IMG/VR virus record: IMGVR_UViG_2534681663_000013
Location: 1-38,045 of that record
Strand: one strand, 5' to 3'
Length of the DNA stretch: 38,045 nucleotides
From: a virus
Taxonomy: Duplodnaviria > Heunggongvirae > Uroviricota > Caudoviricetes
Below, one piece after another: positions 1 to 38,045 of the stretch. A program made the translations under genes and the position numbers. Numbering within the stretch: position 1 is the first letter of the stretch; the number at the start of each line of letters is the position of its first letter. Under the pieces are notes generated by a model. It worked only from the letters and a program-made list of their open reading frames with translations. It did no database searches and was not told the origin of the DNA.

Positions 1-599
1 CTGAACGCGGAGTGAATGTCGATCACTCCACGATTTACCGCTGGGTTCAGCGTTATGCGCCTGAAATGGAAAAACGGCTGCGCTGGTACTGGCGTAACCC
101 TTCCGATCTTTGCCCGTGGCACATGGATGAAACCTACGTGAAGGTCAATGGCCGCTGGGCGTATCTGTACCGGGCCGTCGACAGCCGGGGCCGCACTGTC
201 GATTTTTATCTCTCCTCCCGTCGTAACAGCAAAGCTGCATACCGGTTTCTGGGTAAAATCCTCAACAACGTGAAGAAGTGGCAGATCCCGCGATTCATCA
301 ACACGGATAAAGCGCCCGCCTATGGTCGCGCGCTTGCTCTGCTCAAACGCGAAGGCCGGTGCCCGTCTGACGTTGAACACCGACAGATTAAGTACCGGAA
401 CAACGTGATTGAATGCGATCATGGCAAACTGAAACGGATAATCGGCGCCACGCTGGGATTTAAATCCATGAAGACGGCTTACGCCACCATCAAAGGTATT
501 GAGGTGATGCGTGCACTACGCAAAGGCCAGGCCTCAGCATTTTATTATGGTGATCCCCTGGGCGAAATGCGCCTGGTAAGCAGAGTTTTTGAAATGTAA
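1..599 (+). CDS. tnpA: IS26 transposase Tnp26, 5'-partial (N-terminal ~39 aa outside window)
   Basis: Reading frame is open from position 3 in the frame of the 12-599 ORF. The protein matches the IS6-family DDE transposase. Confidence 0.9.
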   Translation, partial: ERGVNVDHSTIYRWVQRYAPEMEKRLRWYWRNPSDLCPWHMDETYVKVNGRWAYLYRAVDSRGRTVDFYLSSRRNSKAAYRFLGKILNNVKKWQIPRFINTDKAPAYGRALALLKREGRCPSDVEHRQIKYRNNVIECDHGKLKRIIGATLGFKSMKTAYATIKGIEVMRALRKGQASAFYYGDPLGEMRLVSRVFEM

Positions 600-651
600 G
601 GCCTTTGAATAAGACAAAAGGCTGCCTCATCGCTAACTTTGCAACAGTGCC
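1..651 (+). mobile_element. IS26 (IS6 family), partial; element continues upstream of the window
   Basis: Translation of 12-599 matches the C-terminal ~195 aa of Tnp26 as recalled (DHSTIYRWVQRYAPEMEKRLRWYW...GEMRLVSRVFEM). The reverse complement of the IS26 terminal IR GGCACTGTTGCAAA lies at 638-651. Confidence 0.9.
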
Positions 652-3413: not shown

Positions 3414-3446
3414 CGTGGGATAATTTCCGTTTTCCAAGCGGACCCC
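3409..3446. repeat. 38-bp Tn3-family terminal inverted repeat (reads GGGGTCCGCTTGGAAAACGGAAATTATCCCACGCTAAG inward)
   Basis: GGGG...ACGCTAAG architecture with an internal AAAACGGAAA core typical of Tn3/Tn21-family IRs, overlapping the tnpA stop. Confidence 0.8.
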
Positions 3447-3683
3447 AAAAAGATCATGCTGGTTATGAGTGATGGGGAGCCATGTGCTACAGGTAGTGGA
3501 TTCCATCAGCATTTACGAACCGTCACCAAAGAAATTGAGACCTTGAGCGACATCGAACTGATGGCTATCGGCATTCTGACCGACGAACCACGGCGTTACT
3601 ACAAAAATTACGCACTGGTTAACAGTGTAGAAGAGTTAGGGCCGTCAGTCGTCACTGAGTTATCTCGTATCATTCTTAGGTAA
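3447..3683 (+). pseudogene. C-terminal remnant of a CobT-like vWA-domain protein, 5' part removed by the transposon insertion
   Basis: Frame is open from the first base after the IR. The LVMSDGEP motif is typical of the vWA/CobT C-terminal region, and the remnant sits immediately upstream of a cobS-like gene. Family assignment is weak. Confidence 0.4.
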
Positions 3684-3778
3684 TATCTTTACCCTTAAAA
3701 ATAAGTAACCACTTACTATATAGCCTAATATATCTATATAAGATATACCCCACAAACGACAAACAGTAAGGAAAACAC

Positions 3779-5014
3779 ATGACCGCTACTGCACTACAGC
3801 AAGAAAAACATTTGCCGGAAGCCATCGTCTGCAAGTGGTGTGGCAAATCCTTTCATTACCTGAAATCCCATATCTCAATGGGCCGTTGTGAGAGCATTCC
3901 TGAGTCCGCGAAAGGTCTGGACGTGGACGAAGTGGTGAAAATGTACACATCTTCGTTTCCGGATGAACCAACGATCTCTCGCACGGCACTGGCCAAACTC
4001 AACGAGAAGCGTGCCGAAAAACATTCATGCGAAGGAAAGGTAGCGGAGATTAGCGCACATCCAGGCTACGCAGGAACAGTCGAATACAAAACCGAACTGG
4101 TGGCTGCGCACGAACTGCTTGGCCTAACGATCAAAGAGCTGGGTACACCACGCGGAAAACCACTACAGGTGACAGTCAACGTCAACACGCCCTATCCGGA
4201 GTTCGTACCTGAAGCGAAGAAAAACTATGTGTATGGCGACTTCGACCTGATCAAGGACATCTTTATGATGCTGGAAATCGGAATCCCGGGTTATCTCTGG
4301 GGCCATGCAGGAACCGGTAAATCTTCTCTTCCTACGCAGCTATGTGCCCTGCTAAATCGACCACTGATCCGCGCCCAGCATACGGCGTCTATGGAGGAAG
4401 CGCACGTTACAGGCCAGATCCTCGCTCGCGATGGTTCCACCTATTTCGAACCGGGTTTACTAGCGCTGGCGATGAAAAATGGTTGGGTTTACCTCGCTGA
4501 TGAATATGACTTCGCGTTCCCGCAGATTCTGGGTGTGTATCAGCCAGTTCTTGAAGGAGAGCCGCTGATCATCAAAGAGGCAACTGCGGACTGGCGCCGC
4601 ATCACCCCGCATAAACGCTTTGCCTTCATTGGCACTGGCAACACTAACGGCTCTGGCGACGAAACAGGTCTCTATCAAGGCACAAACATCCAGAACGCAG
4701 CGAACTTCTCGCGTTTTGGCATTGTTTCAAACGTGAAGTACATGAGTACGAAGGCAGAAGTCAACATGCTGGCTGAAGCAGGCGTCATCCGCGAATACGC
4801 CGAGAAGATGGTGAAGTTCGCGAATCTTATCCGTGAAGGTTATGAAAAGCATCAGATTAGCCAGCCAATCGGGCCTCGTGAGCTTCTGCTGTCCGCCAAA
4901 ATCGGAATGATGCGCGGTGATTTCTCTGCCGGCATCGAAAAGTCGTTTATCAATAAACTTCCATCCACGTCTGCACAGGCAGCGCGTGAAGTGGTTCAGA
5001 AGATCTTTGGTTAA
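3779..5014 (+). CDS. CobS-like / MoxR-type AAA+ ATPase
   Basis: Walker A GHAGTGKSS and Walker B-like VYLADEYDFA motifs. RBS AAGGAAAACAC precedes the ATG. Confidence 0.7.
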   Translation: MTATALQQEKHLPEAIVCKWCGKSFHYLKSHISMGRCESIPESAKGLDVDEVVKMYTSSFPDEPTISRTALAKLNEKRAEKHSCEGKVAEISAHPGYAGTVEYKTELVAAHELLGLTIKELGTPRGKPLQVTVNVNTPYPEFVPEAKKNYVYGDFDLIKDIFMMLEIGIPGYLWGHAGTGKSSLPTQLCALLNRPLIRAQHTASMEEAHVTGQILARDGSTYFEPGLLALAMKNGWVYLADEYDFAFPQILGVYQPVLEGEPLIIKEATADWRRITPHKRFAFIGTGNTNGSGDETGLYQGTNIQNAANFSRFGIVSNVKYMSTKAEVNMLAEAGVIREYAEKMVKFANLIREGYEKHQISQPIGPRELLLSAKIGMMRGDFSAGIEKSFINKLPSTSAQAAREVVQKIFG

Positions 5015-8706: not shown

Positions 8707-8731
8707 AAAAACCCGCCATTTGGCGGGTTTT
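8707..8731. terminator. Rho-independent terminator (bidirectional hairpin AAAACCCGCCA-TTT-GGCGGGTTTT)
   Basis: Perfect GC-rich stem flanked by A and T runs, between convergent genes dnaE and 8730-9290. Confidence 0.75.
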
Positions 8732-9290
8732 ATGCGCAAATTTTTTCGCAGTCTTGCGAGTGACTGAGTGAGCGAGTAACTCTCTCCACCTCATGAATGT
8801 CGCCCAACGATCTTATACGCAGGGCAAGATTCCACGTACTCAATGTGCGCGCGTTACGCACCAGTTCTTCCCGTGCTTTTTCGTCTTTGCTGTCAAGACG
8901 ACCGCAGTCGTTCAACCATTTAGCGACTTCCGCCCAGTCCCAGAGTGGAGACTGACCGCTGATACGCTGAACAGGGCAAGGAAAATCACCTTTGCCACGT
9001 AATCCGTCTTTAAGCAGAGTAATAGCCTGGCGCGTTAAGCCAGAGAGTTGAGCAATATCGCTCAAGCCTACCAGTGCTGAATCTACCGATTCCACCACTG
9101 CGCCAATGCCTGCTGTTTCAATATCAAGGATTGCCGATTCGATTGCTTCATCTAAAGATTTAGCTTCTCGATCAAATTCTACATACACTGAGTTTCCGTA
9201 GTAGCAAATGAGCGCATCATCGCAACCGTGGCTATACAGAGCATCTGCGACTACGCAGTACTGACTACAGGTTATCAGAATTATCCCCAT
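8730..9290 (-). CDS. Hypothetical protein with predicted HTH segment (LSDIAQLSGLTRQAITLL)
   Basis: 186-aa ORF convergent with dnaE. No confident family assignment. Confidence 0.45.
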   Translation of the reverse strand: MGIILITCSQYCVVADALYSHGCDDALICYYGNSVYVEFDREAKSLDEAIESAILDIETAGIGAVVESVDSALVGLSDIAQLSGLTRQAITLLKDGLRGKGDFPCPVQRISGQSPLWDWAEVAKWLNDCGRLDSKDEKAREELVRNARTLSTWNLALRIRSLGDIHEVERVTRSLSHSQDCEKICA

Positions 9291-9831: not shown

Positions 9832-9950
9832 TTTATGCTAGATAGTAAGTAAGTACTGATCTATCATTCTTCTCGCTCGAAAGAGCCACGAACAAACGAA
9901 CGCCCAATGCGCATAGCGCCAATGGCCACAATCACAACAAGGAGAAATAC

Positions 9951-10190
9951 ATGTCTAAGTCATTACTTGATCTGCTTAACAAGACCCGTGGCGATATTGC
10001 TTCCAAACGTGGCAATAACATTGATTTGACCCGTCTGAAAGATGGCAATAACTATCTGCGCATTTTTCCGAACAAGGACGAGCAGGTCGTGAAGATCATC
10101 GCTCGCGTCGCCAAACACCTGAACCACGACGCAATCAAGTTTGACGAAGCCGCTGCTTCGAAGCGAATCAACGAATCAAAAGGAGCCTAA
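9951..10190 (+). CDS. Hypothetical 79-aa protein immediately upstream of recA
   Basis: Good RBS (AAGGAGAAATAC-ATG). Its 3' end carries the recA RBS. Confidence 0.55.
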   Translation: MSKSLLDLLNKTRGDIASKRGNNIDLTRLKDGNNYLRIFPNKDEQVVKIIARVAKHLNHDAIKFDEAAASKRINESKGA

Positions 10191-10192
10191 TC

Positions 10193-12532
10193 ATGGCAAA
10201 AGGCAAATCCGCACTGGCACTGGCGCTGAAAAAGAAAATCGGCAGCAATGACGAGATTCAGAAGGTCTCCCACTGGATTGACTCCGGTTTCCCTCCACTG
10301 AACAAAGCCATTTCCGGACGTTACGACGGTGGTTTTCCGTGTGGGCGTATCGTTGAAGTCTTCGGGCCACCAAGCGCGGGGAAATGTGTTACCGCAGACA
10401 CCATGCTGCTGACGGAGCGTGGAATGGTAACAGTGAAAGAACTGTTTGAGATTGAGGGGCACAAAGCAACATGCACTACTCGCGATGTAGAGCATAACGT
10501 TGGACTCATCAATGAAAATGGCGTGATAGAGAAGACCTCACACCTGACATGGAACAACCGTCGCAAATTCAAGCGCATTAAGCTGGCATCAGGGGGTTAC
10601 ATCGAGGCTACGTTCCGTCACCCAATTCGTGTGGTTGACGACTTAGGCAATATCGTCTGGCGGTATGCTGAAAAAATCAGTGTAGGCGACACGATTCCTT
10701 CAATGGTTGGCACACATCAATTCGGCGATCAGCACTTGGATGCCAATATCGCAAAACTGATGGGCTATTTAATTGCTGACGGATACGTGGCCTCTGAAAA
10801 TTCTGTGCATGTTTCTAACACAGATCCATTCATCAAGGATGAGTACTACCGCCTCATTTCGCTGGTATCAGACAAGATGCCAGTTACGAGAAAACATAAC
10901 GGCTCGGAAGACCATGTGCTGTTTAGCAAAGAGGGGCGTTCGCTGCTTTTTAAAGAATATGGTCTGGAGTATGAGAAAGCTGCTGGCAAGCAGGTTCCGT
11001 TGAGTGTGCGTCGCGCCAATAGCGAGGCTCAAATTGCATTCCTTCGCGGCTACTTTGAGCTGGAATGCCACGTCAATGATGGTCGCTGCATTGAGGTTGT
11101 GAGCGCGAGTGGGCTGCTGCTACAGCAAATTCGCCTCATGCTCCTGAATCTGGGGATTACGTCAACTATCTCTGAAAAACACGTCGCAGGTTATAAAAAC
11201 ATATATTACCGGCTGTCATTCAGTGGCTCTAACTACGACCTTTTCCTGTCAACGATTGGGTTCGAGTCTCCGGCTCGTTTAGCAGTGGCAACCAAACGGG
11301 ACATTAGTTTTGACCGCACTTATTTAGGCTACGTTCCGCACATCAGCGGCTTAGTGAAATCACTCTACGAGTCACTCACCAAGACCTCTCGTAAAGACTA
11401 CGTTCTGGTAGATCACGTTATTGGCCGCGGCGATCGTGTCGGAATAGACAAACTGCGAGAAATCTATGTCTCCTTCATTGGCAGAAAGAATCGTTTTAAC
11501 GAGCATCTGTTTGCACAACTGGCAGCGGTAATTGACTCTAACTTGTTCTACGACGAAGTCGTGGCTATTGAGGAAGGTGAAGCACCAACGTTCGACGTAG
11601 CGATGCCGGAAACACACTCTTTCTGGTCTAACGGGATTATCAGCCACAACACATTCCTCGCGACGGCTGCGATGGTGTCAGCACAAAAACAGGATGGGCT
11701 GGCCGTATTCCTTGACCACGAAAACAGTTTCGACGTTGGTCTGGCGGTAGCGAACGGACTGAACGCCGACGAAGACGACGGTCAGTGGGTCTACAAACAG
11801 CCGGATACCTTCGAAGACTCCGTAGAGCTGATCGGCACAATCCTCAAGCTGGTGCGCGACGAAGAGCTTATTCCGGAAACAGCCCCTATCTGCATCGTAG
11901 CCGACTCTCTGGCGTCGAGGGTTCCGAACTCGAAGGCTGAGAAGTTCGACAAGATGGCAGAAGGCACTGCGAAGGACAAAGATCAGCTGAACATGAACGA
12001 CAACACGGAGCTGGCGCGCGCGACAAGTGCGAACTTCCCTACTCTGGCGCTTTGGGCGCGTAAGTACAACGCGTGCATCATCTTCTTGAACCAGGTGCGT
12101 ACCAAAATTGGTGTGATGTTTGGCGATCCGACTACGTCTCCGGGTGGCGACTCTCCGAAGTTCTACGCGTCGGTGCGCATCCGTCTGGGTGCATCCGTCA
12201 TGAAGGATGGCAAAGAGAAGATCGGACAGGACGTTGGCGCCGAGTGCATTAAAAACAAAGTCGCGCCTCCGTTTGGCAAATGCTCATGGAAATTCTACTT
12301 CGACCCGACTCGCGGGCTGGACGTCGTCGAGTCTCTGGTTGAATACATGCTGGAGGAAGGATACCTGCCCAAGAGCGCCAGCGGGCGTGTGGAAATTGGC
12401 GAGAAGAAATACACCAAATCACAGATCGTCGAGATGTATCGGGAGAAGCCATTAGCTGAAATCATTGCTGCGTTACAGGCAATAGATGACAGGCGCGAGA
12501 AGACATCACCGACAGATGAATTAGAAGATTAA
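10193..12532 (+). CDS. recA: RecA/UvsX-family recombinase precursor containing an intein
   Basis: N-extein ends GPPSAGK, C-extein starts TFLATAAMV and continues with a RecA-like core. The exteins sum to ~357 aa. Confidence 0.85.
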   Translation: MAKGKSALALALKKKIGSNDEIQKVSHWIDSGFPPLNKAISGRYDGGFPCGRIVEVFGPPSAGKCVTADTMLLTERGMVTVKELFEIEGHKATCTTRDVEHNVGLINENGVIEKTSHLTWNNRRKFKRIKLASGGYIEATFRHPIRVVDDLGNIVWRYAEKISVGDTIPSMVGTHQFGDQHLDANIAKLMGYLIADGYVASENSVHVSNTDPFIKDEYYRLISLVSDKMPVTRKHNGSEDHVLFSKEGRSLLFKEYGLEYEKAAGKQVPLSVRRANSEAQIAFLRGYFELECHVNDGRCIEVVSASGLLLQQIRLMLLNLGITSTISEKHVAGYKNIYYRLSFSGSNYDLFLSTIGFESPARLAVATKRDISFDRTYLGYVPHISGLVKSLYESLTKTSRKDYVLVDHVIGRGDRVGIDKLREIYVSFIGRKNRFNEHLFAQLAAVIDSNLFYDEVVAIEEGEAPTFDVAMPETHSFWSNGIISHNTFLATAAMVSAQKQDGLAVFLDHENSFDVGLAVANGLNADEDDGQWVYKQPDTFEDSVELIGTILKLVRDEELIPETAPICIVADSLASRVPNSKAEKFDKMAEGTAKDKDQLNMNDNTELARATSANFPTLALWARKYNACIIFLNQVRTKIGVMFGDPTTSPGGDSPKFYASVRIRLGASVMKDGKEKIGQDVGAECIKNKVAPPFGKCSWKFYFDPTRGLDVVESLVEYMLEEGYLPKSASGRVEIGEKKYTKSQIVEMYREKPLAEIIAALQAIDDRREKTSPTDELED
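10385..11650 (+). other. Intein (422 aa) with LAGLIDADG homing-endonuclease domain, inserted between Lys and Thr of the RecA Walker A motif
   Basis: Begins with Cys (CVTADTML), TxxH block (ATFRHP), LAGLIDADG blocks (LMGYLIADGYV, LRGYFELECHV), ends ...GIISHN followed by Thr. Confidence 0.8.
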
Positions 12533-12562: not shown

Positions 12563-12622
12563 CCTTGAAAATATATAAGCACTTACTTACCATCTACACA
12601 CAATAGCCACATAGGAAAACAC

Positions 12623-12823
12623 ATGATCAAACTCTATCTGATGGCAGTGGCTACAGGTATATCTGTAGTTTTCATCTACTGTTTGCTGGTTCCGTCGCTG
12701 ATCTCGGCTAAAAGCGATATTGCCGTAATGCTTGGAATCATTGTTGCTTTTGGCGCTCCTGTTATCGGCTTTAATGTTGGTCGTAACTTTCTGAAGTCAC
12801 TAATTAATTCGAAGGGGAAGTAA
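12623..12823 (+). CDS. Small hydrophobic (2-TM) membrane protein
   Basis: 66 aa with two hydrophobic stretches. RBS AGGAAAACAC-ATG. Confidence 0.5.
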   Translation: MIKLYLMAVATGISVVFIYCLLVPSLISAKSDIAVMLGIIVAFGAPVIGFNVGRNFLKSLINSKGK

Positions 12824-25680: not shown

Positions 25681-26325
25681 ATGGATCTTAAACGCACGCG
25701 CTGGGTTCGCCGTCTTGAAGATGGCTCCTACACCATTGAATCAAACACTAGTCTGAACAAACAGAAGTTGCTCTGCGACCTTTGCGGCATTGCTTCGAAA
25801 TGCCCGATTAACGAAACCCGGCTTAAACTCCACGACGCCGGTGCGCATTTCCACCTAAACAGCTGCATACGTTACGTGCCACTACTAGCATTTCGTAAAC
25901 CGATCATCGGATTGGATGCTCCCTACTTCAACACACTGCGCTCTGGTGTCACTTGGCGAGATCGTGTCGAACCTGGCAAACTCGTTTGTCTGGTTGAAGC
26001 TGATACTGGAAATATCATCCGGTTCGGGAGAGTTGATAAGGTCTACTCAGGCCCGGTGGATGAAATACTGCGGAAACACAGCCGATTTAACCATCTCTGC
26101 ATGGGCGGAGAGAAGATTGAGAAGGTTGGCGAAGTAATTCGCAAATCTTACGGACACTTTCTGAATGATAACAGCCTTCTGACAGCCATTTACATTCGAC
26201 ATGTCGATCGGGAGTTCGACACGGAGTATCACAGTGCTGAAGAGTTGAATCTTGTAGACCCTCGTCCAAAAGCTGGGGTAATAGACATTAGCAGAGCGCG
26301 TCAGAAGCCCTCAGAGACGTTTTAA
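25681..26325 (+). CDS. Hypothetical protein (214 aa)
   Basis: Long ORF directly after the origin region. Weak resemblance of its central beta-rich segment to PUA/ASCH-like domains, not supported. Confidence 0.5.
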   Translation: MDLKRTRWVRRLEDGSYTIESNTSLNKQKLLCDLCGIASKCPINETRLKLHDAGAHFHLNSCIRYVPLLAFRKPIIGLDAPYFNTLRSGVTWRDRVEPGKLVCLVEADTGNIIRFGRVDKVYSGPVDEILRKHSRFNHLCMGGEKIEKVGEVIRKSYGHFLNDNSLLTAIYIRHVDREFDTEYHSAEELNLVDPRPKAGVIDISRARQKPSETF

Positions 26326-26721
26326 AGGCAAACTCATGCTTTTTACCGGGCATAAAATATGGTGTCTTAGAAAGACACTGAGAGCTTTAGGGATTAATGC
26401 ATGAGTGAATTTTATTCAAGAGCAGAAACTGTGGCCGACGGATGCGTTTGAAGACGACGCACGCAAACGCCGTAAATGTCATCTCACAACTTCACCGTCC
26501 GTTCTCCTTTTTCATTTCTTGTCATCAGTAAATGACTGCTCTCATAAAATTGCTTGTGACGTTTAGAAATCGTTGCTGCCCTACCTGATAGGTATTTACT
26601 TACTTATTTTTTTGTCATTATCATGTGCCTTTATATTCTTTTGTGTGCCGTGTTGTCTGGGTTGTACGCCTCTTATGCACGCTTAGAATTTGTATCAAAA
26701 TAACCACAAAGGAAAAGACAC

Positions 26722-27000
26722 ATGACATTGCCATACGGGGTAATATCAGATCCCCATTATCATCGTTGGGATGCTTTTGCGACAACAAACGCTGACGGGC
26801 TTAACTCTCGGCTGGAGATCCAACTGGACGCTACGAAGGAGGCGGCCAAAGCGATGAAAGCTGCTGGCTGTAAGCACATGCTGGTAGCTGGTGATACCTT
26901 CCATGTTCGCGGTGCTATATCACCTTCCGTTCTGCATTTCGTGACCGAAACTTACGAGTGGATCATCAAAGAGTTGGGTCTCAAGGTGGTAAGCTGGTGA
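26722..27000 (+). CDS. Hypothetical 92-aa ORF; may be the 5' part of a frameshifted gene continuing in 27035-27436
   Basis: RBS AAAGGAAAAGACAC-ATG. Motifs VISDPHYH and LVAGDTFHVRG. The downstream frame opens at 26993, 8 nt before this ORF stops. Confidence 0.4.
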   Translation: MTLPYGVISDPHYHRWDAFATTNADGLNSRLEIQLDATKEAAKAMKAAGCKHMLVAGDTFHVRGAISPSVLHFVTETYEWIIKELGLKVVSW

Positions 27001-27034: not shown

Positions 27035-27436
27035 ATGCGGCGGTTGAACGAGATTTGGCGTGGTATTAAGCCACTGATTGACCAAGTTCATTTAGTGTTC
27101 TGTGAACTGCCAGTAGGCAGTCAATCTGCTAGAGCGATGGTTTCTTATGGTGGTTGTCTTGGCGTACTGGCGTGTGTGGATAAGCCACTGATACAGGTCA
27201 CGCCAAACGAGATTAAGTACTATGTCGGGAATAAGCTGACTACGTCGAAAGAAGAGATCATTCAGTGGGCTACGCAGAAGCAGCCAAACGCCCCGTGGTT
27301 GCGCCGGAAGCAATCGGGCAAGGAAGTGCTGGTGAATAAAAACGAGCACCTTGCGGACGCTGTCGCATCGATTTACACCGGTATGCAAACTGATCAATTC
27401 CGTCAGGTTCGCGATGTTCTTGCTGGAATTTTATAA
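27035..27436 (+). CDS. RuvC-like (RNase H-fold) resolvase-type protein, C-terminal two thirds; no start codon at the beginning of the open frame
   Basis: Aligns by eye to E. coli RuvC residues ~40-145 (KQVRVNSDDMRRLNEIW / VFCELP / HLADAVA matching VDDLPSRLKLIY / FAIEQV / DAADALA). Confidence 0.45.
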   Translation: MRRLNEIWRGIKPLIDQVHLVFCELPVGSQSARAMVSYGGCLGVLACVDKPLIQVTPNEIKYYVGNKLTTSKEEIIQWATQKQPNAPWLRRKQSGKEVLVNKNEHLADAVASIYTGMQTDQFRQVRDVLAGIL

Positions 27437-27474
27437 GTTGATAATTGATAGGTAAGTGCTTATCTATTACCATG

Positions 27475-27500
27475 AGACCACTATATATAGTGGTCTTTTT
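27475..27500 (+). terminator. Hairpin GACCACTATATATAGTGGTC followed by TTTTT
   Basis: Perfect palindromic stem followed by a T-run, downstream of the 27035-27436 ORF. Confidence 0.55.
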
Positions 27501-27674
27501 AATTGGGCTACACATAATAAGCATCGTAAAACGTAACGCCCACCGAGCCGCTGCCAGCTGCATGAAGCGCTGACAAAGTTCGCTGTCGATTGCACTGGCC
27601 CGAGCCAGTTCGAATACCAAACCCACCAGCAATCCCGTACCAACTTCAAAACCCCCGTAGTCGAGTTCAATCCC

Positions 27675-29328: not shown

Positions 29329-29383
29329 GCCAGATAAGGCCATTATTTGTGGCCTTAAACAATTTGTTTAATTAGTGGTGTAA

Positions 29384-29587
29384 TTATTGGAATCCCAGGC
29401 GAACTAAATCCATTGGGCAGAACAGATCTTCCACACCTTCGATAGACACGCAGTCAGAGCGGCGTAATTGTTCTTCTGATTTGCCTTCTCCGCAGATTTC
29501 CTTGATGACTCCCGTTGCACCATTCGTTGCCACCATCACTCGGCTGCCGGTAGTGATAGTGTTACGGTTGCGATCATAGGTCTTCAT
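29384..29587 (-). CDS. Hypothetical 67-aa protein
   Basis: Strong RBS on the minus strand (GAAAGGAGGAAACG-ATG). Confidence 0.5.
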   Translation of the reverse strand: MKTYDRNRNTITTGSRVMVATNGATGVIKEICGEGKSEEQLRRSDCVSIEGVEDLFCPMDLVRLGFQ

Positions 29588-29775
29588 CGTTTCCTCCTTT
29601 CACATGGGTCAAATCAGGTTTCAAAAATTGCCGTTTTCCATGTAGGTGCGATTTGCAAAATCTCAAGCGCCAAAACAAATTGTTTTCACCATCTTGTTAT
29701 TCAATTAACCCGTAAAGTTGACCAGTACCGTAATAAATACCACTGTTTATATGTGCAGTATTGCGAGGCGAGCAA

Positions 29776-30041
29776 TGGGCAGCAAGAATTCTAAATATGT
29801 GATCGTCTATAGGGGCGAAGCACTCAAGCACCTAATACCCGGACAGTTCGTTTTCTTCCAACGTGAAAAAGAATACGGTGGGGGGTTCTGGCTTGGTAAA
29901 ACGCATGAGGATGGGTTCGAATTTGTGCTGGAGCAACCCACTTCACTAAGTTACGGGCTTGCGTATCTGATCAGATTGTCGAGTGTCGAAGCCAGGTATA
30001 TGGAGTTTGTTGATGACATAGACGACTTCAAACTCACCTAG
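29776..30041 (+). CDS. Hypothetical small protein (start taken at ATG 29776; ORF track starts at 29718)
   Basis: GAGG 6 nt upstream of ATG 29776. Confidence 0.45.
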
Positions 30042-30082
30042 TCATCCCTTAAACATCTTGTTTTCTGCCTTTCGTTATTTGA

Positions 30083-30114
30083 GATAATAATACCAATAAG
30101 AAAACAAATTGTTT
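30083..30114 (+). promoter_or_regulatory. Promoter module A: -10-like GATAAT (30083-30088) followed 13 bp later by palindrome AAACA-AAT-TGTTT (30102-30114), then RBS AAGGAG
   Basis: Same architecture recurs at 32868-32899, 35385-35416 and 35869-35901. Confidence 0.5.
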
Positions 30115-30126
30115 AAGGAGTTAATC

Positions 30127-30363
30127 ATGTTCGGAACCGCGAAAGAAATTATCGAAAAGCTGGAGAACTACCCAGAAGACGAGCCGCTGCTGATGGTGAT
30201 GGGGCACAAGGAAGATGGAGGTGAAGGGCGACCAGACCTGACTGACGAACAGTGCGTTCAGGTTTTGCGAAAAATCAAAGAGTGCCATGACGCCAGCGTC
30301 GGCGTGAATTGGGATGTCATTTCTGACACGGCCAACATTCTGTTTCCAAAGGAGAAGGCATGA
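30127..30363 (+). CDS. Hypothetical small protein
   Basis: RBS AAGGAG at 30114-30119, ATG at 30127. Stop overlaps the next start (ATGA). Confidence 0.55.
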   Translation: MFGTAKEIIEKLENYPEDEPLLMVMGHKEDGGEGRPDLTDEQCVQVLRKIKECHDASVGVNWDVISDTANILFPKEKA

Positions 30364-30680
30364 TGCTGAAAATCACCGAATCGTATAAGACGGCGGTGAT
30401 CAGCACCGCCCACGTCACGGCAGCGGATTCAGAACGGCTACCCATTGCCTGCTTCGACCCACTTACTGATCGCGGGTTGAATTGGGTACACGGTACACAG
30501 TATGGATGGATTGTTCGTGCTGGAATGCGAGGGAATGACTGGAAGGAAGAATTGCGTGATTACGGCATTTCCCAAGAGGCGATCTCTAACATACAGGCCA
30601 TACGGGATGCCGGGTATGATTCGGTACAATTTGACTGTGATGCGGAGCTGGTGGATGGAATGCCAGCATGGGATTGGTAG
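30360..30680 (+). CDS. Hypothetical 106-aa protein, translationally coupled to the preceding ORF
   Basis: ATGA overlap with the upstream gene. Confidence 0.55.
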   Translation: MMLKITESYKTAVISTAHVTAADSERLPIACFDPLTDRGLNWVHGTQYGWIVRAGMRGNDWKEELRDYGISQEAISNIQAIRDAGYDSVQFDCDAELVDGMPAWDW

Positions 30681-30695
30681 ATATAACTACTAGCA

Positions 30696-31322
30696 ATGGC
30701 GGGAATAATTACCTGGAAAGTTGATATCATATACCCGCTTGTATTTCAAAATGGAATGGATGTAATGGAAATCGATACTTTAGAAAAAAAATCAGTTAAA
30801 AACCTCTACGCGTGGCTTATAGCAATACTGCCGTTTGTTGTCAGCGTCCCCCCTGCTGAGTACGACAATTACGTTATGGTGATTTCGTTCGTCATTGGGC
30901 TTGGACTGCTGGTCGCCGATCGCATGAATTTGACTGAGGCAGGCTATGAGCCACCATCATTCTTATGTGGGTTCTTTATCCCCCCTGTGTATCTCTGGAA
31001 ACGAGCGACGGTTCTTGGAAGTAACCGACTGCTGTTTATCGTATGGATTGTTGCCTTTGCTGCATCATTTTTCGTGTATAGCTTCAACGCAGATTCAGCG
31101 CTTGAAGAAGCTGCTTGCCCTATAGTTACCACTATTCTGAAAGAAAATAACGGTTCAGAAGCATCTAAATGCATGAAGGTAACAATTCAGGACAAAGTGA
31201 CGGACAAGTTCTACAAAGCCACGGCTACACTGGATAACGGTAATGACATTAACATCACTATCGAAATGATCGGTGACGAGAATTTCTACGTTCGCGTGCC
31301 TAATTACTACCTAAACGACTAA
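30696..31322 (+). CDS. Hypothetical integral membrane protein (start uncertain, alternatives at 30756 and 30765)
   Basis: Several hydrophobic helices (LYAWLIAILPFVVSV, VMVISFVIGLGLLVA, LLFIVWIVAFAASFFVY). Confidence 0.5.
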   Translation: MAGIITWKVDIIYPLVFQNGMDVMEIDTLEKKSVKNLYAWLIAILPFVVSVPPAEYDNYVMVISFVIGLGLLVADRMNLTEAGYEPPSFLCGFFIPPVYLWKRATVLGSNRLLFIVWIVAFAASFFVYSFNADSALEEAACPIVTTILKENNGSEASKCMKVTIQDKVTDKFYKATATLDNGNDINITIEMIGDENFYVRVPNYYLND

Positions 31323-32931
31323 CGGCTGCAACTCGTTGACATTGGCGGTCACAAATTGAGGATTTCTATAAGAGTCCGTTGATCGCCACTTCCCCCACCT
31401 CTCCAACCTACCCCAGCCCAGGGGTGACAAGGCATTTAAGCCAATTACACCCATAAGAAAACAAATAAATAACACGTCAACGAAAAGTCAACGCTTTCCT
31501 CTGATTTGGTCTAAAAAGTTGACGTTTTCGCAAGCCATCTCTTATACCCAAAATCCTGCGCACCAGAATCCATCTCCCTGCGACCAAAACGTCAAAAACG
31601 ACTCGTGATATCACTCAAAAACAGAAGCGCTCAGAAGCGCTCCCGTTGCGTTATATTGGGCATCTAAACAAGTTGTTTTCAGGCATAAGAAAACAAGTTA
31701 ACAACCCCCACAGGAAACCCAGAGACGCCATTACCCACAATCCCGGAAACACCCACCTCTTCCTGTCAGACTACCGAAAAGACCCACCTCATTGCCCCAG
31801 GCTACAGACCACCCACCTAATATTCCCAGGCAACCGAGAACGCGGTTCGCACGCGCAAACCCCGATACGTCATTACCCAATACACGGAGAAGAACAGCCA
31901 GAACGAAACCCCGGACAAACCCAGACAAGAACAGGAGCCGTCACAATCTCGTTTACCCACCATTACCCCGAAAGAGAGCGCAAATTCCTGAATAGCAGGG
32001 AACGCCATTACTTCATATGCGGAGAACAACTAAAGCGCCCTACTGCCATTACCCACACTTTCATCATTTCACGTAAACGAAGAGAAAAGCGCCCCTGCCA
32101 TTACTCCATACACGGAGAAGAACACTCACCAAAACGACGAGAACAACCCAGACGAAAACACAGAGAAGAACCACCTCAAGAAGAACGAAACCACATATGC
32201 CGGTAGAAAGAACAAACCACCCATTTCACCCAAAGGAATACTCGCCGTATAGAGCGTTATCAGAGGGAAGGTTTATGCCCACATAAGAGAGAAAATTCGT
32301 GGGAGGTATAAGTGGGAAGGGAAGGAGGGGTATCGCCACTTTTTCCGCATAAATTCAAGCCATAGTTTTCATCCCCCGTAACGTCCCTTTCCACCCCTTC
32401 GGTCAGCCTTCGGGCCATCCGGGAAAGCTATGTCCCTTTTCAGGAACGGGAGCGTCGCCGCAGGGAAAAGGCTTGAGGTTTTCAGGGAAACGGTGGGAAT
32501 CCCGCTATACGAACCGGGGAAAGGCTGGCTGCCGGTCGGGAAACGGGTACATCCCGGTACAGAGTGAGGGACGACTGCGGGAGCGGTGCGGGAAATCTTC
32601 GGGAGTGCGCCTTACTCTTCACTCGCCTGAAAATCGCGGGGGAGTGTCATTCCCTCTCGTGCAGCTACTGGACTCCATTCTGCCAGACCATCATTGGGTC
32701 TCAAGCTATTTCAGTAGGTTTTCGGGGAGAAGGATATTCTGCCCACCAGCCCCGTGGCGCGCGTAGAGCAGAATATCGTAAATACTGGCTCCCGTGTCGT
32801 TCCCGGATATTCACTGCCCAGCCTGGCTTTCACGACATAAAATCCTTTTCCGCCTTTGTCTTATTGCGATAATAACACCAACAAGTAAACAACATGTTTA
32901 GACGTTATATAAACGAAGTGAGGATGAAGAG
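31323..32931. repeat. 1.6-kb non-coding, repeat-dense region with strong strand compositional asymmetry
   Basis: No convincing ORF; the only long ORF (31646-32206) is low complexity. Repeats include ACCCACCT x3, a ~27-bp repeat GCCATTACYCMATACACGGAGAAGAAC x2, a GGGAAACGG-type motif at least 6 times, and the palindrome AAACAAGTTGTTT at 31666. Confidence 0.6.
32868..32899 (+). promoter_or_regulatory. Promoter module B: GATAAT (32868-32873) plus palindrome AAACA-ACA-TGTTT (32887-32899)
   Basis: Conserved block GCGATAATAACACCAACAAG shared with modules A, C and D. Confidence 0.5.
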
Positions 32932-33150
32932 ATGATTAAGATGCCTGTGACGGTTGAGGTGTGGGGCGTGGATTCCCTGGCTGAGTGTCTGGATGCAGTG
33001 GGGCCGGAGTTGTACCGCAAGTTGTGGTCGTTCGTCCCGGCAGAAGGGGAATCGCCCAAAGGGAAGGATATCTGGCACCTGCTGAGTGAAGATGAAAAGC
33101 GGGAGCTGGTGGACGCGGTACACAGCGAGTTCCCGGGCGACGAAGATTAA
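32932..33150 (+). CDS. Hypothetical 72-aa acidic protein
   Basis: RBS GAGGATGAAGAG-ATG. Followed by a terminator hairpin. Confidence 0.55.
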   Translation: MIKMPVTVEVWGVDSLAECLDAVGPELYRKLWSFVPAEGESPKGKDIWHLLSEDEKRELVDAVHSEFPGDED

Positions 33151-33157
33151 GAGTGAG

Positions 33158-33180
33158 GCCACCAGCACGGTGGCTTTTGT
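33158..33180 (+). terminator. Rho-independent terminator (GCCACC-agcac-GGTGGC + TTTTGT)
   Basis: Stem-loop followed by a T-run. The same stem family recurs at 35256-35271 and 35722-35745. Confidence 0.6.
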
Positions 33181-33289
33181 CGCTATTAACCTCCGGGGCA
33201 GCGCAGCACCGTAACGATATACTTTGTGGCCGTTTTCTTACTGGTATTGTTTACGCAATTCAGAAAACAACATGTTTAAGGATTGCGTT

Positions 33290-33619
33290 ATGTTTGCAAA
33301 TATCGACATCAACCAAATCAAGAAAATGACTCAAAAAGAGTTTGACCAGTTTTATGAGTTAGAAGGTTGGTCTTCCACGCTGATCAATTCGCGCTGGGTG
33401 CTTGAGCTGATGACTCGTGATGATGCTCCTGCTTTGATTATTTGCGACCTGGGTGATGATGCTGACTTTATGGATATGAGCGAATTTTGTGTGGATACAT
33501 ACAACCGCAGCCAGAAGTACTACTTCACATGCGATAGCGAGAATGACGTGATTTCTAAGCTCTATCTTCACCTTGTCCAGCATTGGGACGTTCAGGAGTT
33601 CCTTGATGTATTCGCGTAA
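33290..33619 (+). CDS. Hypothetical 109-aa acidic protein
   Basis: Palindrome AAACA-ACA-TGTTT at 33265-33277, then AAGGA and ATG 33290. Confidence 0.55.
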   Translation: MFANIDINQIKKMTQKEFDQFYELEGWSSTLINSRWVLELMTRDDAPALIICDLGDDADFMDMSEFCVDTYNRSQKYYFTCDSENDVISKLYLHLVQHWDVQEFLDVFA

Positions 33620-33779
33620 ACCCAACCAAAGCCAGCACCGCCTGCTGGCTTAACTTCTCTGTAGCCGCAGGGAAGAACCACCTTTAGATAATTCATGTGC
33701 CTGAGCAATATGCTTTGTAGCCGTTTTTACACTGGTATTATTTACGCCATTGAGAAAACAATTTGTTTACGGAGTGGTG

Positions 33780-34091
33780 ATGAATACTTCATTGGTGCTG
33801 GGTCTTGCTGAAGGTCAGGAGAGAAAAGAAAAACCAACCTTAATGGGGCATCTCACATTGCTGGATATCGTAGCGAATGGGACTTCTATCCGTCTGTTTC
33901 GTGAAAAAGCCATTACCTTCGACGCGGGCAATTTTACGCGCTATGTGATGGTAGTTCGTCGCCAGCGTGGAAGAGGGTGGATGTCGGTCCAGAAAATGTG
34001 GCCAGAGGACCAGCTTGAACTGGCGCTGATGGAAGCCAACCGTGTCGCCCAACAAGAGATCCAACGAGCGTCTGTTCAGGCGGTAGCTTAA
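33780..34091 (+). CDS. Hypothetical 103-aa protein
   Basis: Palindrome at 33756-33768, GGAG 6 nt upstream of ATG 33780. The upstream 60 bp are near-identical to the region upstream of 33290. Confidence 0.55.
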   Translation: MNTSLVLGLAEGQERKEKPTLMGHLTLLDIVANGTSIRLFREKAITFDAGNFTRYVMVVRRQRGRGWMSVQKMWPEDQLELALMEANRVAQQEIQRASVQAVA

Positions 34092-34125
34092 ACATGTGCA
34101 AGCAGTAGTTAGTCGAATGTACGAC

Positions 34126-34154
34126 AGCCCCGCCAATCCTTCGGGGCTTTTTTG
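34126..34154 (+). terminator. Rho-independent terminator (AGCCCC-loop-GGGGCT + TTTTTT)
   Basis: GC stem followed by a T6 run. Confidence 0.7.
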
Positions 34155-34180
34155 TATTGTAAGTACTTACTTATGATAAT
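34152..34180 (+). promoter_or_regulatory. Sigma70-like promoter: -35 TTGTAT, 17-bp spacer containing perfect palindrome GTAAGTACTTAC (34159-34170), -10 GATAAT
   Basis: Canonical spacing. RBS AAGGAGAG and ATG 34213 follow. Confidence 0.55.
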
Positions 34181-34212
34181 AAAATTAAAAATTAAACACT
34201 AAGGAGAGTGAA

Positions 34213-34608
34213 ATGACCGTTAAACGCGAAAATCTGACCCTGGATATGTATTATGCATCAGAGACGGAAAATGGAGACAAAGTTGCAAAAATTACAATTG
34301 TGCTACGCGATAATGCCTCCGGCGAAGAAGTTCACACCAGTACCTTAACTCGCACCGGCGAGGCCACAAAGGGAAAATATTCGGTGCGTTACCAAAGCAT
34401 CAGTAATGCTTCTGACCCTTTACTGATAAAACTGGAAACTCATTTCCGTGGCGCGGATCAGACGTTGTTTGAAAATTTGATGAAAAAGGTCGATGCGGTT
34501 TATACATCGAGTTTAAATACCAATAGTACCTGGATGGGACAACACGGTCTGCGAATAATCTCCGGCGAAAAGATCGACACCATTGTCCCTGAAAGCGTAT
34601 TCGCTTAA
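34213..34608 (+). CDS. Hypothetical 131-aa protein
   Basis: Strong RBS, with promoter upstream and terminator downstream. Confidence 0.6.
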   Translation: MTVKRENLTLDMYYASETENGDKVAKITIVLRDNASGEEVHTSTLTRTGEATKGKYSVRYQSISNASDPLLIKLETHFRGADQTLFENLMKKVDAVYTSSLNTNSTWMGQHGLRIISGEKIDTIVPESVFA

Positions 34609-34617
34609 TCCTCTTTG

Positions 34618-34646
34618 AATGGCGCGTAAACCGCGCCATTTTCTTA
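34618..34646 (+). terminator. Rho-independent terminator (AATGGCGCG-taaa-CCGCGCCATT + TTCTT)
   Basis: 10-bp stem followed by a T-rich tract. Confidence 0.7.
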
Positions 34647-34725
34647 TTCCCGATAACAATTTGTTTTCTGCCTTATCTGATTTGTGAAAATGATTTCACT
34701 GAAGCAACTTAATAAGGATACCATC

Positions 34726-35100
34726 ATGGGACTTGATATCTATATCGAGACGCAGCCTAAAAACGATCTGAATAACGAGGCATCCAGAAAGCAGGTTGCT
34801 TACTTCCGTAAGTTCAATGCGCTCGTTGGGTGGATGGAGCGCAACGTAGGTGAAGTCGAAAATTGTGAGCTTTTAGAATTAACGATGAATGACATTTGTT
34901 TTCTGAAGGCTCATTTGATGCACATAAACGAAAGTAATTGCGAAGTGTACTTACCTACCCGGGAAGGTTTTTTCTTCGGCAGTCAGGAGTACGATGAAGG
35001 TTACTGGCATGACGTGGATAAGCTGAAAAAACTTGTGGAAGACCTGATCAGGAACCACGACTTTCACAATAACAGACTGACGTTCCGTGCCTGGTGGTAA
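34726..35100 (+). CDS. Hypothetical 124-aa protein (ORF track starts at 34684; ATG 34726 has the better RBS)
   Basis: AAGGA 7 nt upstream of ATG 34726. Confidence 0.55.
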   Translation: MGLDIYIETQPKNDLNNEASRKQVAYFRKFNALVGWMERNVGEVENCELLELTMNDICFLKAHLMHINESNCEVYLPTREGFFFGSQEYDEGYWHDVDKLKKLVEDLIRNHDFHNNRLTFRAWW

Positions 35101-35102
35101 AT

Positions 35103-35246
35103 ATGGGCGATTTCAAGAAACGCCTGAAGGAGAGAGCCGAGATGGTCAGAAAGCGAAACGCCTCTTCTGTCATAAGATACGCAAGGCAGTTTAGTCGCAA
35201 CAACAAATCAGTTGAGGAAAAGATCCTTAGCGTAATCGGGCGATAA
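35103..35246 (+). CDS. Possible 47-aa basic protein (MGDFKKRLKERAEMVRKRNASSVIRYARQFSRNNKSVEEKILSVIGR)
   Basis: Starts 3 nt after the preceding stop and is followed by a hairpin element. Below the ORF-track length cut-off. Confidence 0.3.
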   Translation: MGDFKKRLKERAEMVRKRNASSVIRYARQFSRNNKSVEEKILSVIGR

Positions 35247-35384
35247 TTATTAAGGCCACCAGCATTGGTGGTCTTAAATGACTTTTAATAACCGAAGGTT
35301 AGTTTGAAACCTGGCTATCAACTTCCAGAACCTTTCTTGTGTATTCAGCCTGTATTAACTTCTTTTATGCCTTATCTACACTGC

Positions 35385-35416
35385 GATAATTACACCAACA
35401 AGAAAACAATATGTTT
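35385..35416 (+). promoter_or_regulatory. Promoter module C: GATAAT (35385-35390) plus palindrome AAACA-ATA-TGTTT (35404-35416)
   Basis: Same architecture and shared flanking sequence as modules A, B and D. Confidence 0.5.
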
Positions 35417-37309: not shown

Positions 37310-37813
37310 TTACGCTTTGAAAGCATCAGCCAGATAGTTATAAAAATCATTTTTAACGAAGCGATATTGCTGTGATCCGTTTTTCGCTGCACCCATTCCT
37401 TTGATTTTTTCGACCAGTCCCAGACGTTCGCAAAGATTGATAAGCTGGTTGGCTTGAGTGTATCCTGCGTCTAATTTTATTTCGTTGGCTTTTTTCGCTT
37501 TATTCATTAAATCGAAAACAGCGCCATTGGTGAACGTGTCGATCTCGTCGTTAATCATATCGATTAAAGCGAATACACGAGATCCGGACATATCAGCGAC
37601 GGAATAAACACACTTTCCAGCTTTAATAGATTTAACCAGATAAACCAGTTTTTCGAGTGAATAGCTATTGGTCATAGCTTCACGGAAAAACGCTTCAGGT
37701 GCTTGTTTACTTGCTTTAATCGCGTAGTAAAAGATACCAGCTAATTTCTCATCATTAACAGCGTTTAAAACGTTGTTGGTGAAGTATGCTAGTTTGGTAG
37801 ACGCTGCAAGCAT
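37310..37813 (-). CDS. Hypothetical 167-aa protein (AT-rich gene)
   Basis: Long minus-strand ORF in a low-GC segment, with a terminator downstream. Confidence 0.55.
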   Translation of the reverse strand: MLAASTKLAYFTNNVLNAVNDEKLAGIFYYAIKASKQAPEAFFREAMTNSYSLEKLVYLVKSIKAGKCVYSVADMSGSRVFALIDMINDEIDTFTNGAVFDLMNKAKKANEIKLDAGYTQANQLINLCERLGLVEKIKGMGAAKNGSQQYRFVKNDFYNYLADAFKA

Positions 37814-37833
37814 GTTAGCTTTATCCGCTTTTG

Positions 37834-38045
37834 GGTGATGCTGCCAACTTACTGATTTAGTGTATGATGGTGTTTTTGAGGTGCTCCAGTGGCTTCTGTT
37901 TCTATCAGCTGTCCCTCCTGTTCAGCTACTGACGGGGTGGTGCGTAACGGCAAAAGCACTGCCGGACATCAGCGCTATCTCTGCTCTCATTGCCGTAAAA
38001 CATGGCAACTACAGTTCACTTACACCGCCTCTCAGCCCGGTAAGC
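37834..38045 (+). mobile_element. IS1, left end (partial; continues beyond the window)
   Basis: GGTGATGCTGCCAACTTACTGATTTAGTGTATGATGGTGTTTTTGAGGTGCTCCAGTGGCTTCTGTTTCTATCAGC matches the IS1 IRL and insA leader as recalled. Confidence 0.9.
37889..38045 (+). CDS. insA: IS1 InsA, 3'-partial (runs off the window)
   Basis: GTG start, translation (M)[50 protein letters not shown] matches InsA. Confidence 0.85.

Follow-up and report, generated by a model that had tools for sequence, protein, structure and literature searches.

Mycobacteriophage L5 carries more than 20 repressor sites genome-wide, located at promoters and in short intergenic spaces ("stoperators"), which are proposed to stop transcription initiation at the former and elongation at the latter; these sites are 13 bp long, asymmetric, orientation-dependent and bound by a monomer (PMC9283540). 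Here we analysed a stretch of 38,045 nucleotides of viral DNA (IMG/VR record IMGVR_UViG_2534681663_000013, hereafter the window) that carries a motif whose genome-wide layout most closely resembles that of L5, with dispersed sites at promoters and in short gaps. It differs from the L5 sites in that it is a 20-bp palindrome, symmetrically conserved and without meaningful orientation, in that it belongs to a plasmid prophage of a proteobacterial host, and in that a block to elongation is here something that we only infer. Membership of the L5 stoperator type was rejected, since the motif is palindromic and does not show the asymmetry and orientation of that type.

Other described systems share part of this design. 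Phage P1 is a plasmid prophage of Enterobacteriaceae whose C1 repressor controls many operators over ~100 kb; the P1 operators are asymmetric and 17 bp long, and C1, which binds them, is a large monomer with no relationship to the XRE family. The plasmid-prophage lifestyle and the dispersal of the present motif resemble those of P1, but there is no sequence similarity to the C1 operators. The conserved inverted repeats (CIRs) of Streptomyces phage phiC31 are a 17-bp palindrome that recurs between genes at many loci and is recognized by the phage repressor; judged by their general description, the dispersed-palindrome design is alike, whereas sequence, repressor family and host differ. In the IncP plasmid RK2, the KorB/KorA system uses a palindromic operator at many promoters and promoter-distal positions of the plasmid backbone; KorB belongs to the ParB family and is expressed in the plasmid state, in contrast to the ParB-like genes of the elements described here, which are silent in the lysogen. 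Finally, the operators of lambda and 434 cI/Cro consist, like the present motif, of inverted half-sites about one helical turn apart, but in lambdoid phages they cluster in two or three control regions, compared with ~30 dispersed sites here. We classify the motif as dispersed repressor operators in kind, but outside the L5, P1 C1 and phiC31 CIR families.

The window represents a decayed piece of an SSU5-like phage-plasmid

Megablast searches placed the window among SSU5-like phage-plasmids, a group represented by Escherichia phages PhiR41_1 and Cyrano, Salmonella phage SSU5, phage-plasmids of Klebsiella and numerous E. coli plasmids. Only a decayed segment of such an element is left, flanked by IS elements: positions 1-3446 hold IS26-type (DDE_Tnp_IS240) and split Tn3 transposase ORFs, with cobT truncated on the left, and positions 37831-38045 hold an IS1 that truncates the phrog_1513 gene (37310-37813) at the right edge. 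Compared with the complete relative pRHB41-C15_2 from E. coli/E. fergusonii (NZ_CP056969.1, 106,982 bp; hereafter pRHB41), several backbone blocks are deleted, namely the 3′ part of the SSB gene together with the exonuclease, SbcCD, the MazG-ThyA-DHFR-Dam block and the Rha/antirepressor-methylase block. The deletion junctions lie near 10080, 26991-26997, 27614-27618 and 28103. Because these junctions never fall on the motif sites described below, there is no sign of site-mediated recombination, and a role of the motif in recombination was discarded. No structural genes were found in the window, which therefore represents a decayed leftover rather than a phage that could be induced. At ~13.2-21.6 kb lies a type I restriction-modification island. 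A 779-aa ORF at 10193-12532 (plus strand) is annotated in RefSeq as a LAGLIDADG homing endonuclease and in Cyrano as RecA; it exceeds the recombinase gene of SSU5 (1077 bp) by ~1.26 kb, and this extra length suggests an intein-containing RecA-like recombinase.

Six copies of a 20-bp palindrome lie between backbone genes

A preliminary description of the window, made from its sequence alone, had listed a TAAGTRCTTA-type palindrome at six positions. The exact word TAAGTRCTTA was found at three loci (12576, 27453 and 34160) against 0.09 expected, a count that none of 100 shuffles equalled, and the 9-mer ACTTACTTA was present in five copies (9846 on the minus strand, 12581, 19105, 26598 and 34165) against ~0.3 expected, the latter being an estimate from base composition rather than from shuffles. 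The same 9-mer has 17 copies in pRHB41. We then used a 23-bp position weight matrix, iteratively refined, with the consensus AATAGGTAAGTACTTACTTATTT. Scanning the window with it down to 7 bits gave six sites and none else, each of at least 22 bits (matches at 3699-3721, 9843-9865, 12570-12592, 26587-26609, 27446-27468 and 34154-34176), compared with 0.00-0.01 sites at ≥14 bits in dinucleotide shuffles of the window; the matrix was trained on pRHB41, which is 95-99% identical to the window, so that these matches are not independent, as the exact-word counts are. All six of the listed palindromes were thus present and the scan recovered exactly these, including the two that had been called weak, at a significance of six sites against 0.01 in shuffles. 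The features concerned are the following.

34126-34153, plus strand: terminator-like hairpin, AGCCCCG / CGGGGCT, 9-nt loop, T6
34152-34180, plus strand: sigma-70-like promoter (consensus match only), TTGTAT-TGTAAGTACTTACTTAT-GATAAT, 17-bp spacer filled by site A
34155-34174, unstranded: site A, TATTGTAAGTACTTACTTAT, 26.0 bits
12571-12590, unstranded: site B, ATATATAAGCACTTACTTAC, 26.9 bits
27448-27467, unstranded: site C, ATAGGTAAGTGCTTATCTAT, 29.3 bits
9845-9864, unstranded: site D, GTAAGTAAGTACTGATCTAT, 27.7 bits
26588-26607, unstranded: site E, ATAGGTATTTACTTACTTAT, 30.9 bits
3701-3720, unstranded: site F, ATAAGTAACCACTTACTATA, 22.8 bits

All six sites are located between phage-plasmid backbone ORFs and none in the type I restriction-modification island or at IS ends. 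In site A the core and the right half match the consensus, and the left half is degenerate and overlaps TTGTAT. The arrangement first described at 34152-34180, TTGTAT and GATAAT separated by 17 bp with GTAAGTACTTAC in the spacer (34159-34170), reads as claimed; the scan tool gave an alternative register for this promoter, TTGTAA-17-TAAAAT (34157-34185). An ORF (34213-34608) lies downstream of the promoter-like match. Site A is kept in pRHB41, SSU5, Cyrano and pJN2-26 although the DNA downstream diverges, and the hairpin that closes the upstream gene and abuts site A is kept in all five genomes (it was read from the sequence by eye; the scan tool misses loops of more than 8 nt).

Site B lies within a promoter-like TTGAAA-17-TACCAT (12565-12593) upstream of a small membrane-protein gene at 12623, and site E overlaps the -35 of a promoter-like TTTACT-18-TATCAT (26595-26624) upstream of an SbcD-like remnant at 26722; in site E, ATAGGTATnTACTTACTTAT is kept in pJN2-26 and Cyrano although the flanks are essentially unalignable. 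Site C begins 11 nt past the stop codon of ORF 27035-27436, with a terminator-like hairpin (27474-27497) directly after it and a hexamer pair, TTGATA-17-TACCAT, overlapping it, so that promoter-like hexamer pairs overlap four of the six sites (A, B, E and C). Site D begins 13 nt past the stop codon of a UvsY-like ORF (end 9831), upstream of the truncated gp32-like SSB gene (9952); the window, pRHB41, SSU5 and pJN2-26 agree in all 20 bp of it, and Cyrano departs at the first base. Site F falls between cobT and cobS and precedes the latter (3779) by 58 nt; its orthologue is also found in Yersinia, Kluyvera, Buttiauxella and Serratia loci.

The word AAACA-N3-TGTTT occurs in nine exact copies against 0.04 expected, only at 29357-35416 of the window, and looks like a separate, locally clustered site set; all its copies fall within a block of small hypothetical genes at 29.3-35.4 kb, interleaved with site A. 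The confinement of this set agrees with the initial view that the palindrome is distinct from it. An initiation region shared by three genes had also been reported, and it is indeed present, as AGGAAAACACATG at cobS (3779) and at 12623 and as AGGAAAAGACACATG at 26722. Its supposed tie to the palindrome was lost on comparison with SSU5, in which ...ACACATG is found at 9 of 129 genes, only five of the nine after a site. Judged from its distribution, the AGGAAAACACATG region is a general translation-start or ribosome-binding context common to many genes of these phages. The start context AAGGAAAA(A)CACATG, found at ~9 SSU5 genes (cobS, dnaE, sbcD, nrdB and others) whether or not a palindrome lies upstream, is an unusually uniform ribosome-binding region, with window copies at 3766-3781, 12610-12625 and 26707-26724.

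The motif is dispersed throughout SSU5-like phage-plasmids

The complete genomes contained 29 sites in pRHB41, 28 in SSU5 (Salmonella), 29 in pJN2-26 (Klebsiella) and 30 in Cyrano, compared with 0.04-0.23 in shuffles, and fragments from Yersinia pestis (pMT1-type), Kluyvera, Buttiauxella and Serratia proved to carry the motif as well. Retrieval of viral contigs by the 14-mer core GGTAAGTACTTACC gave at least 120 stretches. Among the matches listed, 51 SSU5-like stretches accounted for 173 sites in 412 kb, 69 other stretches had fewer than one site each, representing AT-rich chance matches, and the motif was multi-copy only in SSU5-like contigs. With ~30 sites per complete genome, kept across genera, the motif is therefore a property of the SSU5-like family and not of this replicon. 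The proposal of a second backbone regulon holds insofar as there is a real, dispersed and backbone-specific site set; what changes is that the set is family-wide and not peculiar to the replicon in which it was noticed. Full-text literature searches found no published description of the motif or of an operator for SSU5-like elements, and on an SSU5/pHCM2 operator or repressor they found only the "putative repressor" annotation in Cyrano.

Sites were non-coding in 27 of 29 cases in pRHB41 and in 26 of 28 in SSU5, of whose records 81.5% and 88.4%, respectively, are annotated as coding; on either strand the motif has stop codons in two of its three frames, a property that adds to this bias but cannot explain all of it. 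The comparison of intergenic with coding positions thus came out in favour of the preliminary description, with all six window sites intergenic and ~93% of the copies non-coding in complete relatives. Most sites occupy short gaps just past stop codons, late operon included: in SSU5, 14 of the 26 intergenic sites start ≤20 nt after the upstream stop codon and several overlap it. The SSU5 sites include those in the terL-portal gap, after the major capsid gene, between tail genes and before the holin gene, and others lie between cobT and cobS, between MazG and ThyA, and between Dam and the DUF4942 methylase. Terminator-like hairpins precede or follow some sites. In alignments of the window's sites, the 20-mer stands out as a conserved island in diverged orthologous gaps. 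This comparative evidence speaks for selection on the motif.

Two copies are located inside genes and kept across genomes, with orthologues in pRHB41, Cyrano and pJN2-26: SSU5 3544-3563, at the 3′ end of the portal gene and ~100 bp before the next gene, and SSU5 43661-43680, in cobT. Two further SSU5 copies of 18-19 bits (33469-33488 and 78323-78342) each form the AT-rich apex of a long hairpin that has a GC clamp and a T-run behind it, and are therefore parts of large terminator-like structures; these may be a different element that merely resembles the motif.

The motif has the features of a DNA site for a symmetric dimer

Across the four genomes, information content was mirror-symmetric about the centre; in SSU5, the values per position were 4 7 6 2 5 9 6 5 4 5 in the left half and 5 4 5 6 8 4 3 5 6 3 in the right half. 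The TAAGTRCTTA unit originally proposed is a real core, but the full unit is a 20-bp palindrome, ATARGTAAGT followed by ACTTAYCTAT. The pooled half-site is A-T-A-R-G-T-A-A-G-T, in which T6 is invariant (188/188 half-sites), and the half-sites are inverted about the centre as in the operators of cI/Cro (XRE) HTH proteins. Analysis of 94 distinct 20-mers showed that departures from the consensus are one-sided, without compensation at any of the 10 pairs: pairs 2/19 and 7/14 had 20 and 17 deviating sites, respectively, and both sides were changed in none. On average 6.8 of 10 positions were complementary. Sequence rather than pairing is conserved, and the motif is therefore not an RNA or DNA hairpin; an RNA hairpin or intrinsic terminator was also rejected because the motif itself carries no T-run.

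The motif had been presented as a promoter motif, a name that fits the overlap with hexamer pairs at four window sites but not the absence of any fixed -35/-10 offset in the four genomes. When sites were aligned by gene direction, no information was found within ±60 bp except a weak A-rich patch just upstream, which leaves no -10 or -35 with a constant offset. The offset of the site from the start of the promoter-like match spans 24 bp (-17 to +7), which led us to reject a sigma-70 promoter element, and 19 of the 26 intergenic SSU5 sites have no promoter-like match. The remaining seven overlap a sigma-70-like match in gene direction, compared with 0.9 ± 0.9 in random intergenic windows, and their centres fall at ~-32 to -8, over the core promoter (estimated from the offsets, taking the start of the -35 hexamer as -35). 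This variable position over core elements would fit occlusion by a repressor and not an activator box. An apparent orientation bias in the late operon, where the matrix put all sites on one strand, came from R/Y at positions 4 and 17 only; because the late-operon sites are near-symmetric, it was dropped as evidence.

Because conservation is mirror-symmetric, deviations are one-sided and uncompensated and there is no fixed promoter offset, we read the motif as a double-stranded DNA site for a symmetric dimer. Its architecture is, as far as sequence can tell, that of an operator for a cI/Cro-type HTH dimer, and one conserved site in many copies, mostly non-coding, is what characterizes a dispersed set of prophage-repressor operators.

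An XRE protein encoded by three complete relatives is the leading candidate binder

A search for a cognate repressor in the replicon had been proposed; in the window it revealed no candidate regulator. Two window genes were considered and discarded. The gene at 8730-9290 (minus strand) encodes a HicB-like antitoxin, orthologous to CYRAN_50 and classified by PHROG as "excisionase and transcriptional regulator" and elsewhere as "DNA-binding protein"; its orthologue is absent from pJN2-26, which keeps 29 sites. CYRAN_50 is highly expressed in the Cyrano lysogen, together with HicA (PMC9928086). The gene at 37310-37813 (minus strand), taken for an FljA-like regulator, is actually the neighbouring hypothetical gene, truncated by IS1. 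Pfam gave no matches for most of the small candidate proteins.

All annotated DNA-binding candidates of the complete relatives were then examined. Three of these genomes carry, next to the integrase gene, a gene for an XRE-family HTH protein of 128 aa (CYRAN_45, annotated "putative repressor"; pRHB41 25957-26346; pJN226_0108), which is divergent from the cobT-cobS-dnaE early block and absent from the window. In Cyrano, pRHB41 and pJN2-26 alike, sites flank TTTACA-16-TAATAT, the sole promoter-like match ahead of the gene, with a conserved GGTAAGTRCTTAC at -10/+1 and a weaker site on the -35. The AlphaFold model of the protein (pLDDT 78) predicts a cI/Cro-type five-helix HTH fold, and its nearest structures are C.AhdI, C.BclI, 434 Cro and the N-terminal domain of lambda cI. 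The candidate would thus share with lambda/434 cI-Cro its fold, the proximity of its gene to the integrase and a site on its own promoter. It differs from them in that no S24 self-cleavage domain was found in it.

Expression values from RNA-seq of the LF82 (Cyrano) lysogen, taken from the supplementary table of PMC9928086 (median 9.8), were 95.8 for the XRE gene CYRAN_45, ~10 times the median, 5.0 and 9.5 for the ParB-like CYRAN_119 and CYRAN_120, 6.4 for CYRAN_37, 7.8 for CYRAN_123 and 18 for the FljA-like CYRAN_114, so that the conserved DNA-binding candidates other than the XRE protein were at background or at most ~2 times the median. Of 22 genes directly downstream of a site, 20 were at or near background in the lysogen; this comparison has little power, because nearly all forward-strand lytic genes are silent, site or none. 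CYRAN_34 (43.7) and CYRAN_81 (117) are preceded by a site and yet expressed. Expression falls across two site-bearing gaps, from 54.6 to 6.2 and from 31.5 to 7.5, drops that could be due to ordinary terminators.

The XRE family is essentially restricted to contigs of ~100-116 kb from Enterobacteriaceae and is narrow, with 49-96% identity among the matches; the genome scan for relatives gave only 84%-identical ones, and the most distant syntenic homologue examined, from Serratia (49% identity), still has a similar motif. Protein and site thus offered no informative divergence across these relatives. P0067, also considered for such a comparison, lies in an unrelated context, without sites. The lytic phage D29 lacks an L5-type repressor gene but keeps stoperator sites, and SSU5 likewise lacks the XRE gene, together with the integrase, and keeps its 28 sites; Cyrano (41090-42574), pRHB41 and pJN2-26 carry both genes. 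The persistence of high-quality sites in SSU5 fits a recent loss of the XRE gene and fits equally a binder common to all four genomes. SSU5 is described as virulent (PMC5427195). The lack of the XRE gene and integrase would be a simple candidate explanation of its lytic behaviour. We consider the XRE protein the leading candidate binder on the basis of its position, its expression and its predicted fold.

Alternative readings of the sites

The sites could instead bind a lytic-phase positive regulator, that is, an activator or anti-terminator loader acting on early and late genes in the manner of P1 Lpa, Mu C or the T4 MotA boxes. The sites precede early and late lytic genes and are kept in virulent SSU5 without the XRE gene, several sites of the late operon are directly followed by terminator-like hairpins, a place at which anti-termination might occur, and all four genomes encode small conserved proteins (CYRAN_37-like, CYRAN_123-like and FljA-like). 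We nevertheless regard this reading as unlikely: the activator boxes of P1 Lpa, Mu C and T4 MotA have a strict position, whereas here no -10/-35 lies at a fixed distance, and site centres spread over the core elements are the geometry of a repressor.

RK2 KorB and N15 SopB use dispersed palindromes, and the motif could in the same way provide centromere-like or KorB-type sites for a ParB_N-domain protein with a role in partition, DNA organisation or packaging. All complete relatives encode a pair of neighbouring ParB_N proteins, with a site directly upstream of the first gene in all four genomes. Their expression in the lysogen, the state that needs partition, is however at background, only the ParB N-terminal domain was detected in them and no HTH domain, their genes head the packaging/late operon while a separate module of ParA and a small protein exists, and thirty copies placed specifically between genes are unlike a centromere. 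Such a function appears improbable, even more so than that of an activator.

The chances are slimmer still for a motif acting at the RNA level, as a processing or termination hairpin or as a translational operator of an FljA-like (Flag1_repress / Hfq-like) protein. The palindrome is transcribed, for several copies a start codon follows at 11-17 nt, and every relative encodes an FljA-like protein. However, the uncompensated pairs and incomplete pairing described above show that both halves are conserved by sequence, and a reader of single-stranded RNA would need no mirror-symmetric conservation.

Equally hard to credit is a host (enterobacterial) transcription factor recruited by the phage-plasmid, for although the motif is unchanged in Escherichia, Salmonella, Klebsiella, Yersinia, Kluyvera and Buttiauxella elements and only slightly altered in those of Serratia, and its GTAAG-N2-CTTAC core superficially resembles LacI-family half-sites, its central TA differs from the CG of that family, it matches to our knowledge no E. 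coli factor consensus, it is multi-copy only in SSU5-like contigs among the viral matches listed with the 14-mer core, and an element-encoded HTH gene has a site on its own promoter.

A proposed dispersed operator set for the lysogenic state of SSU5-like phage-plasmids

We therefore return to a repressor, and consider it probable that the motif represents the ~30 dispersed operators of the prophage repressor of SSU5-like phage-plasmids, with the XRE HTH protein as the likeliest binder. Binding, repression and the identity of the binder are all matters that we infer. According to this model, a symmetric dimer encoded by the phage-plasmid would occupy the 20-bp sites in the plasmid (lysogenic) state, through the half-site 5′-ATARGTAAGT-3′, and the predicted target of the XRE protein would be ATAGGTAAGTACTTACCTAT. 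At sites that lie over a core promoter (A, B, E and probably F in the window), the bound protein would exclude RNA polymerase. At sites in short co-directional gaps (C, D and most late-operon sites of the relatives), it might limit read-through in a roadblock-like fashion, a role that is purely conjectural. Because the window no longer encodes the XRE protein, its own six sites would either be served by a regulator supplied from elsewhere or be relics. A more far-reaching version, in which a single small XRE dimer uses ~30 palindromes as operators and elongation roadblocks to silence a whole lytic genome of ~100 kb, we put forward only tentatively and consider rather doubtful.

If true, the system would stand beside the stoperators of mycobacteriophages as their symmetric counterpart in proteobacteria. 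It would also offer a second case, a symmetric one, for asking whether repressor sites spread between genes throughout a genome serve as roadblocks to transcription. The motif and its repressor would define immunity groups as a pair, and would explain the virulence of the repressor-less SSU5. The motif may further serve as a signature that separates intact from decayed elements and predicts which genes (morons) escape repression. SSU5-like phage-plasmids (pHCM2, pMT1-related elements and the Klebsiella/E. coli "phage-like plasmid" groups) are frequent in clinical Enterobacteriaceae and often harbour resistance genes, and the control of their lysogeny is essentially undescribed; an operator consensus, ~30 mapped sites and a named candidate repressor make it a directly testable system.
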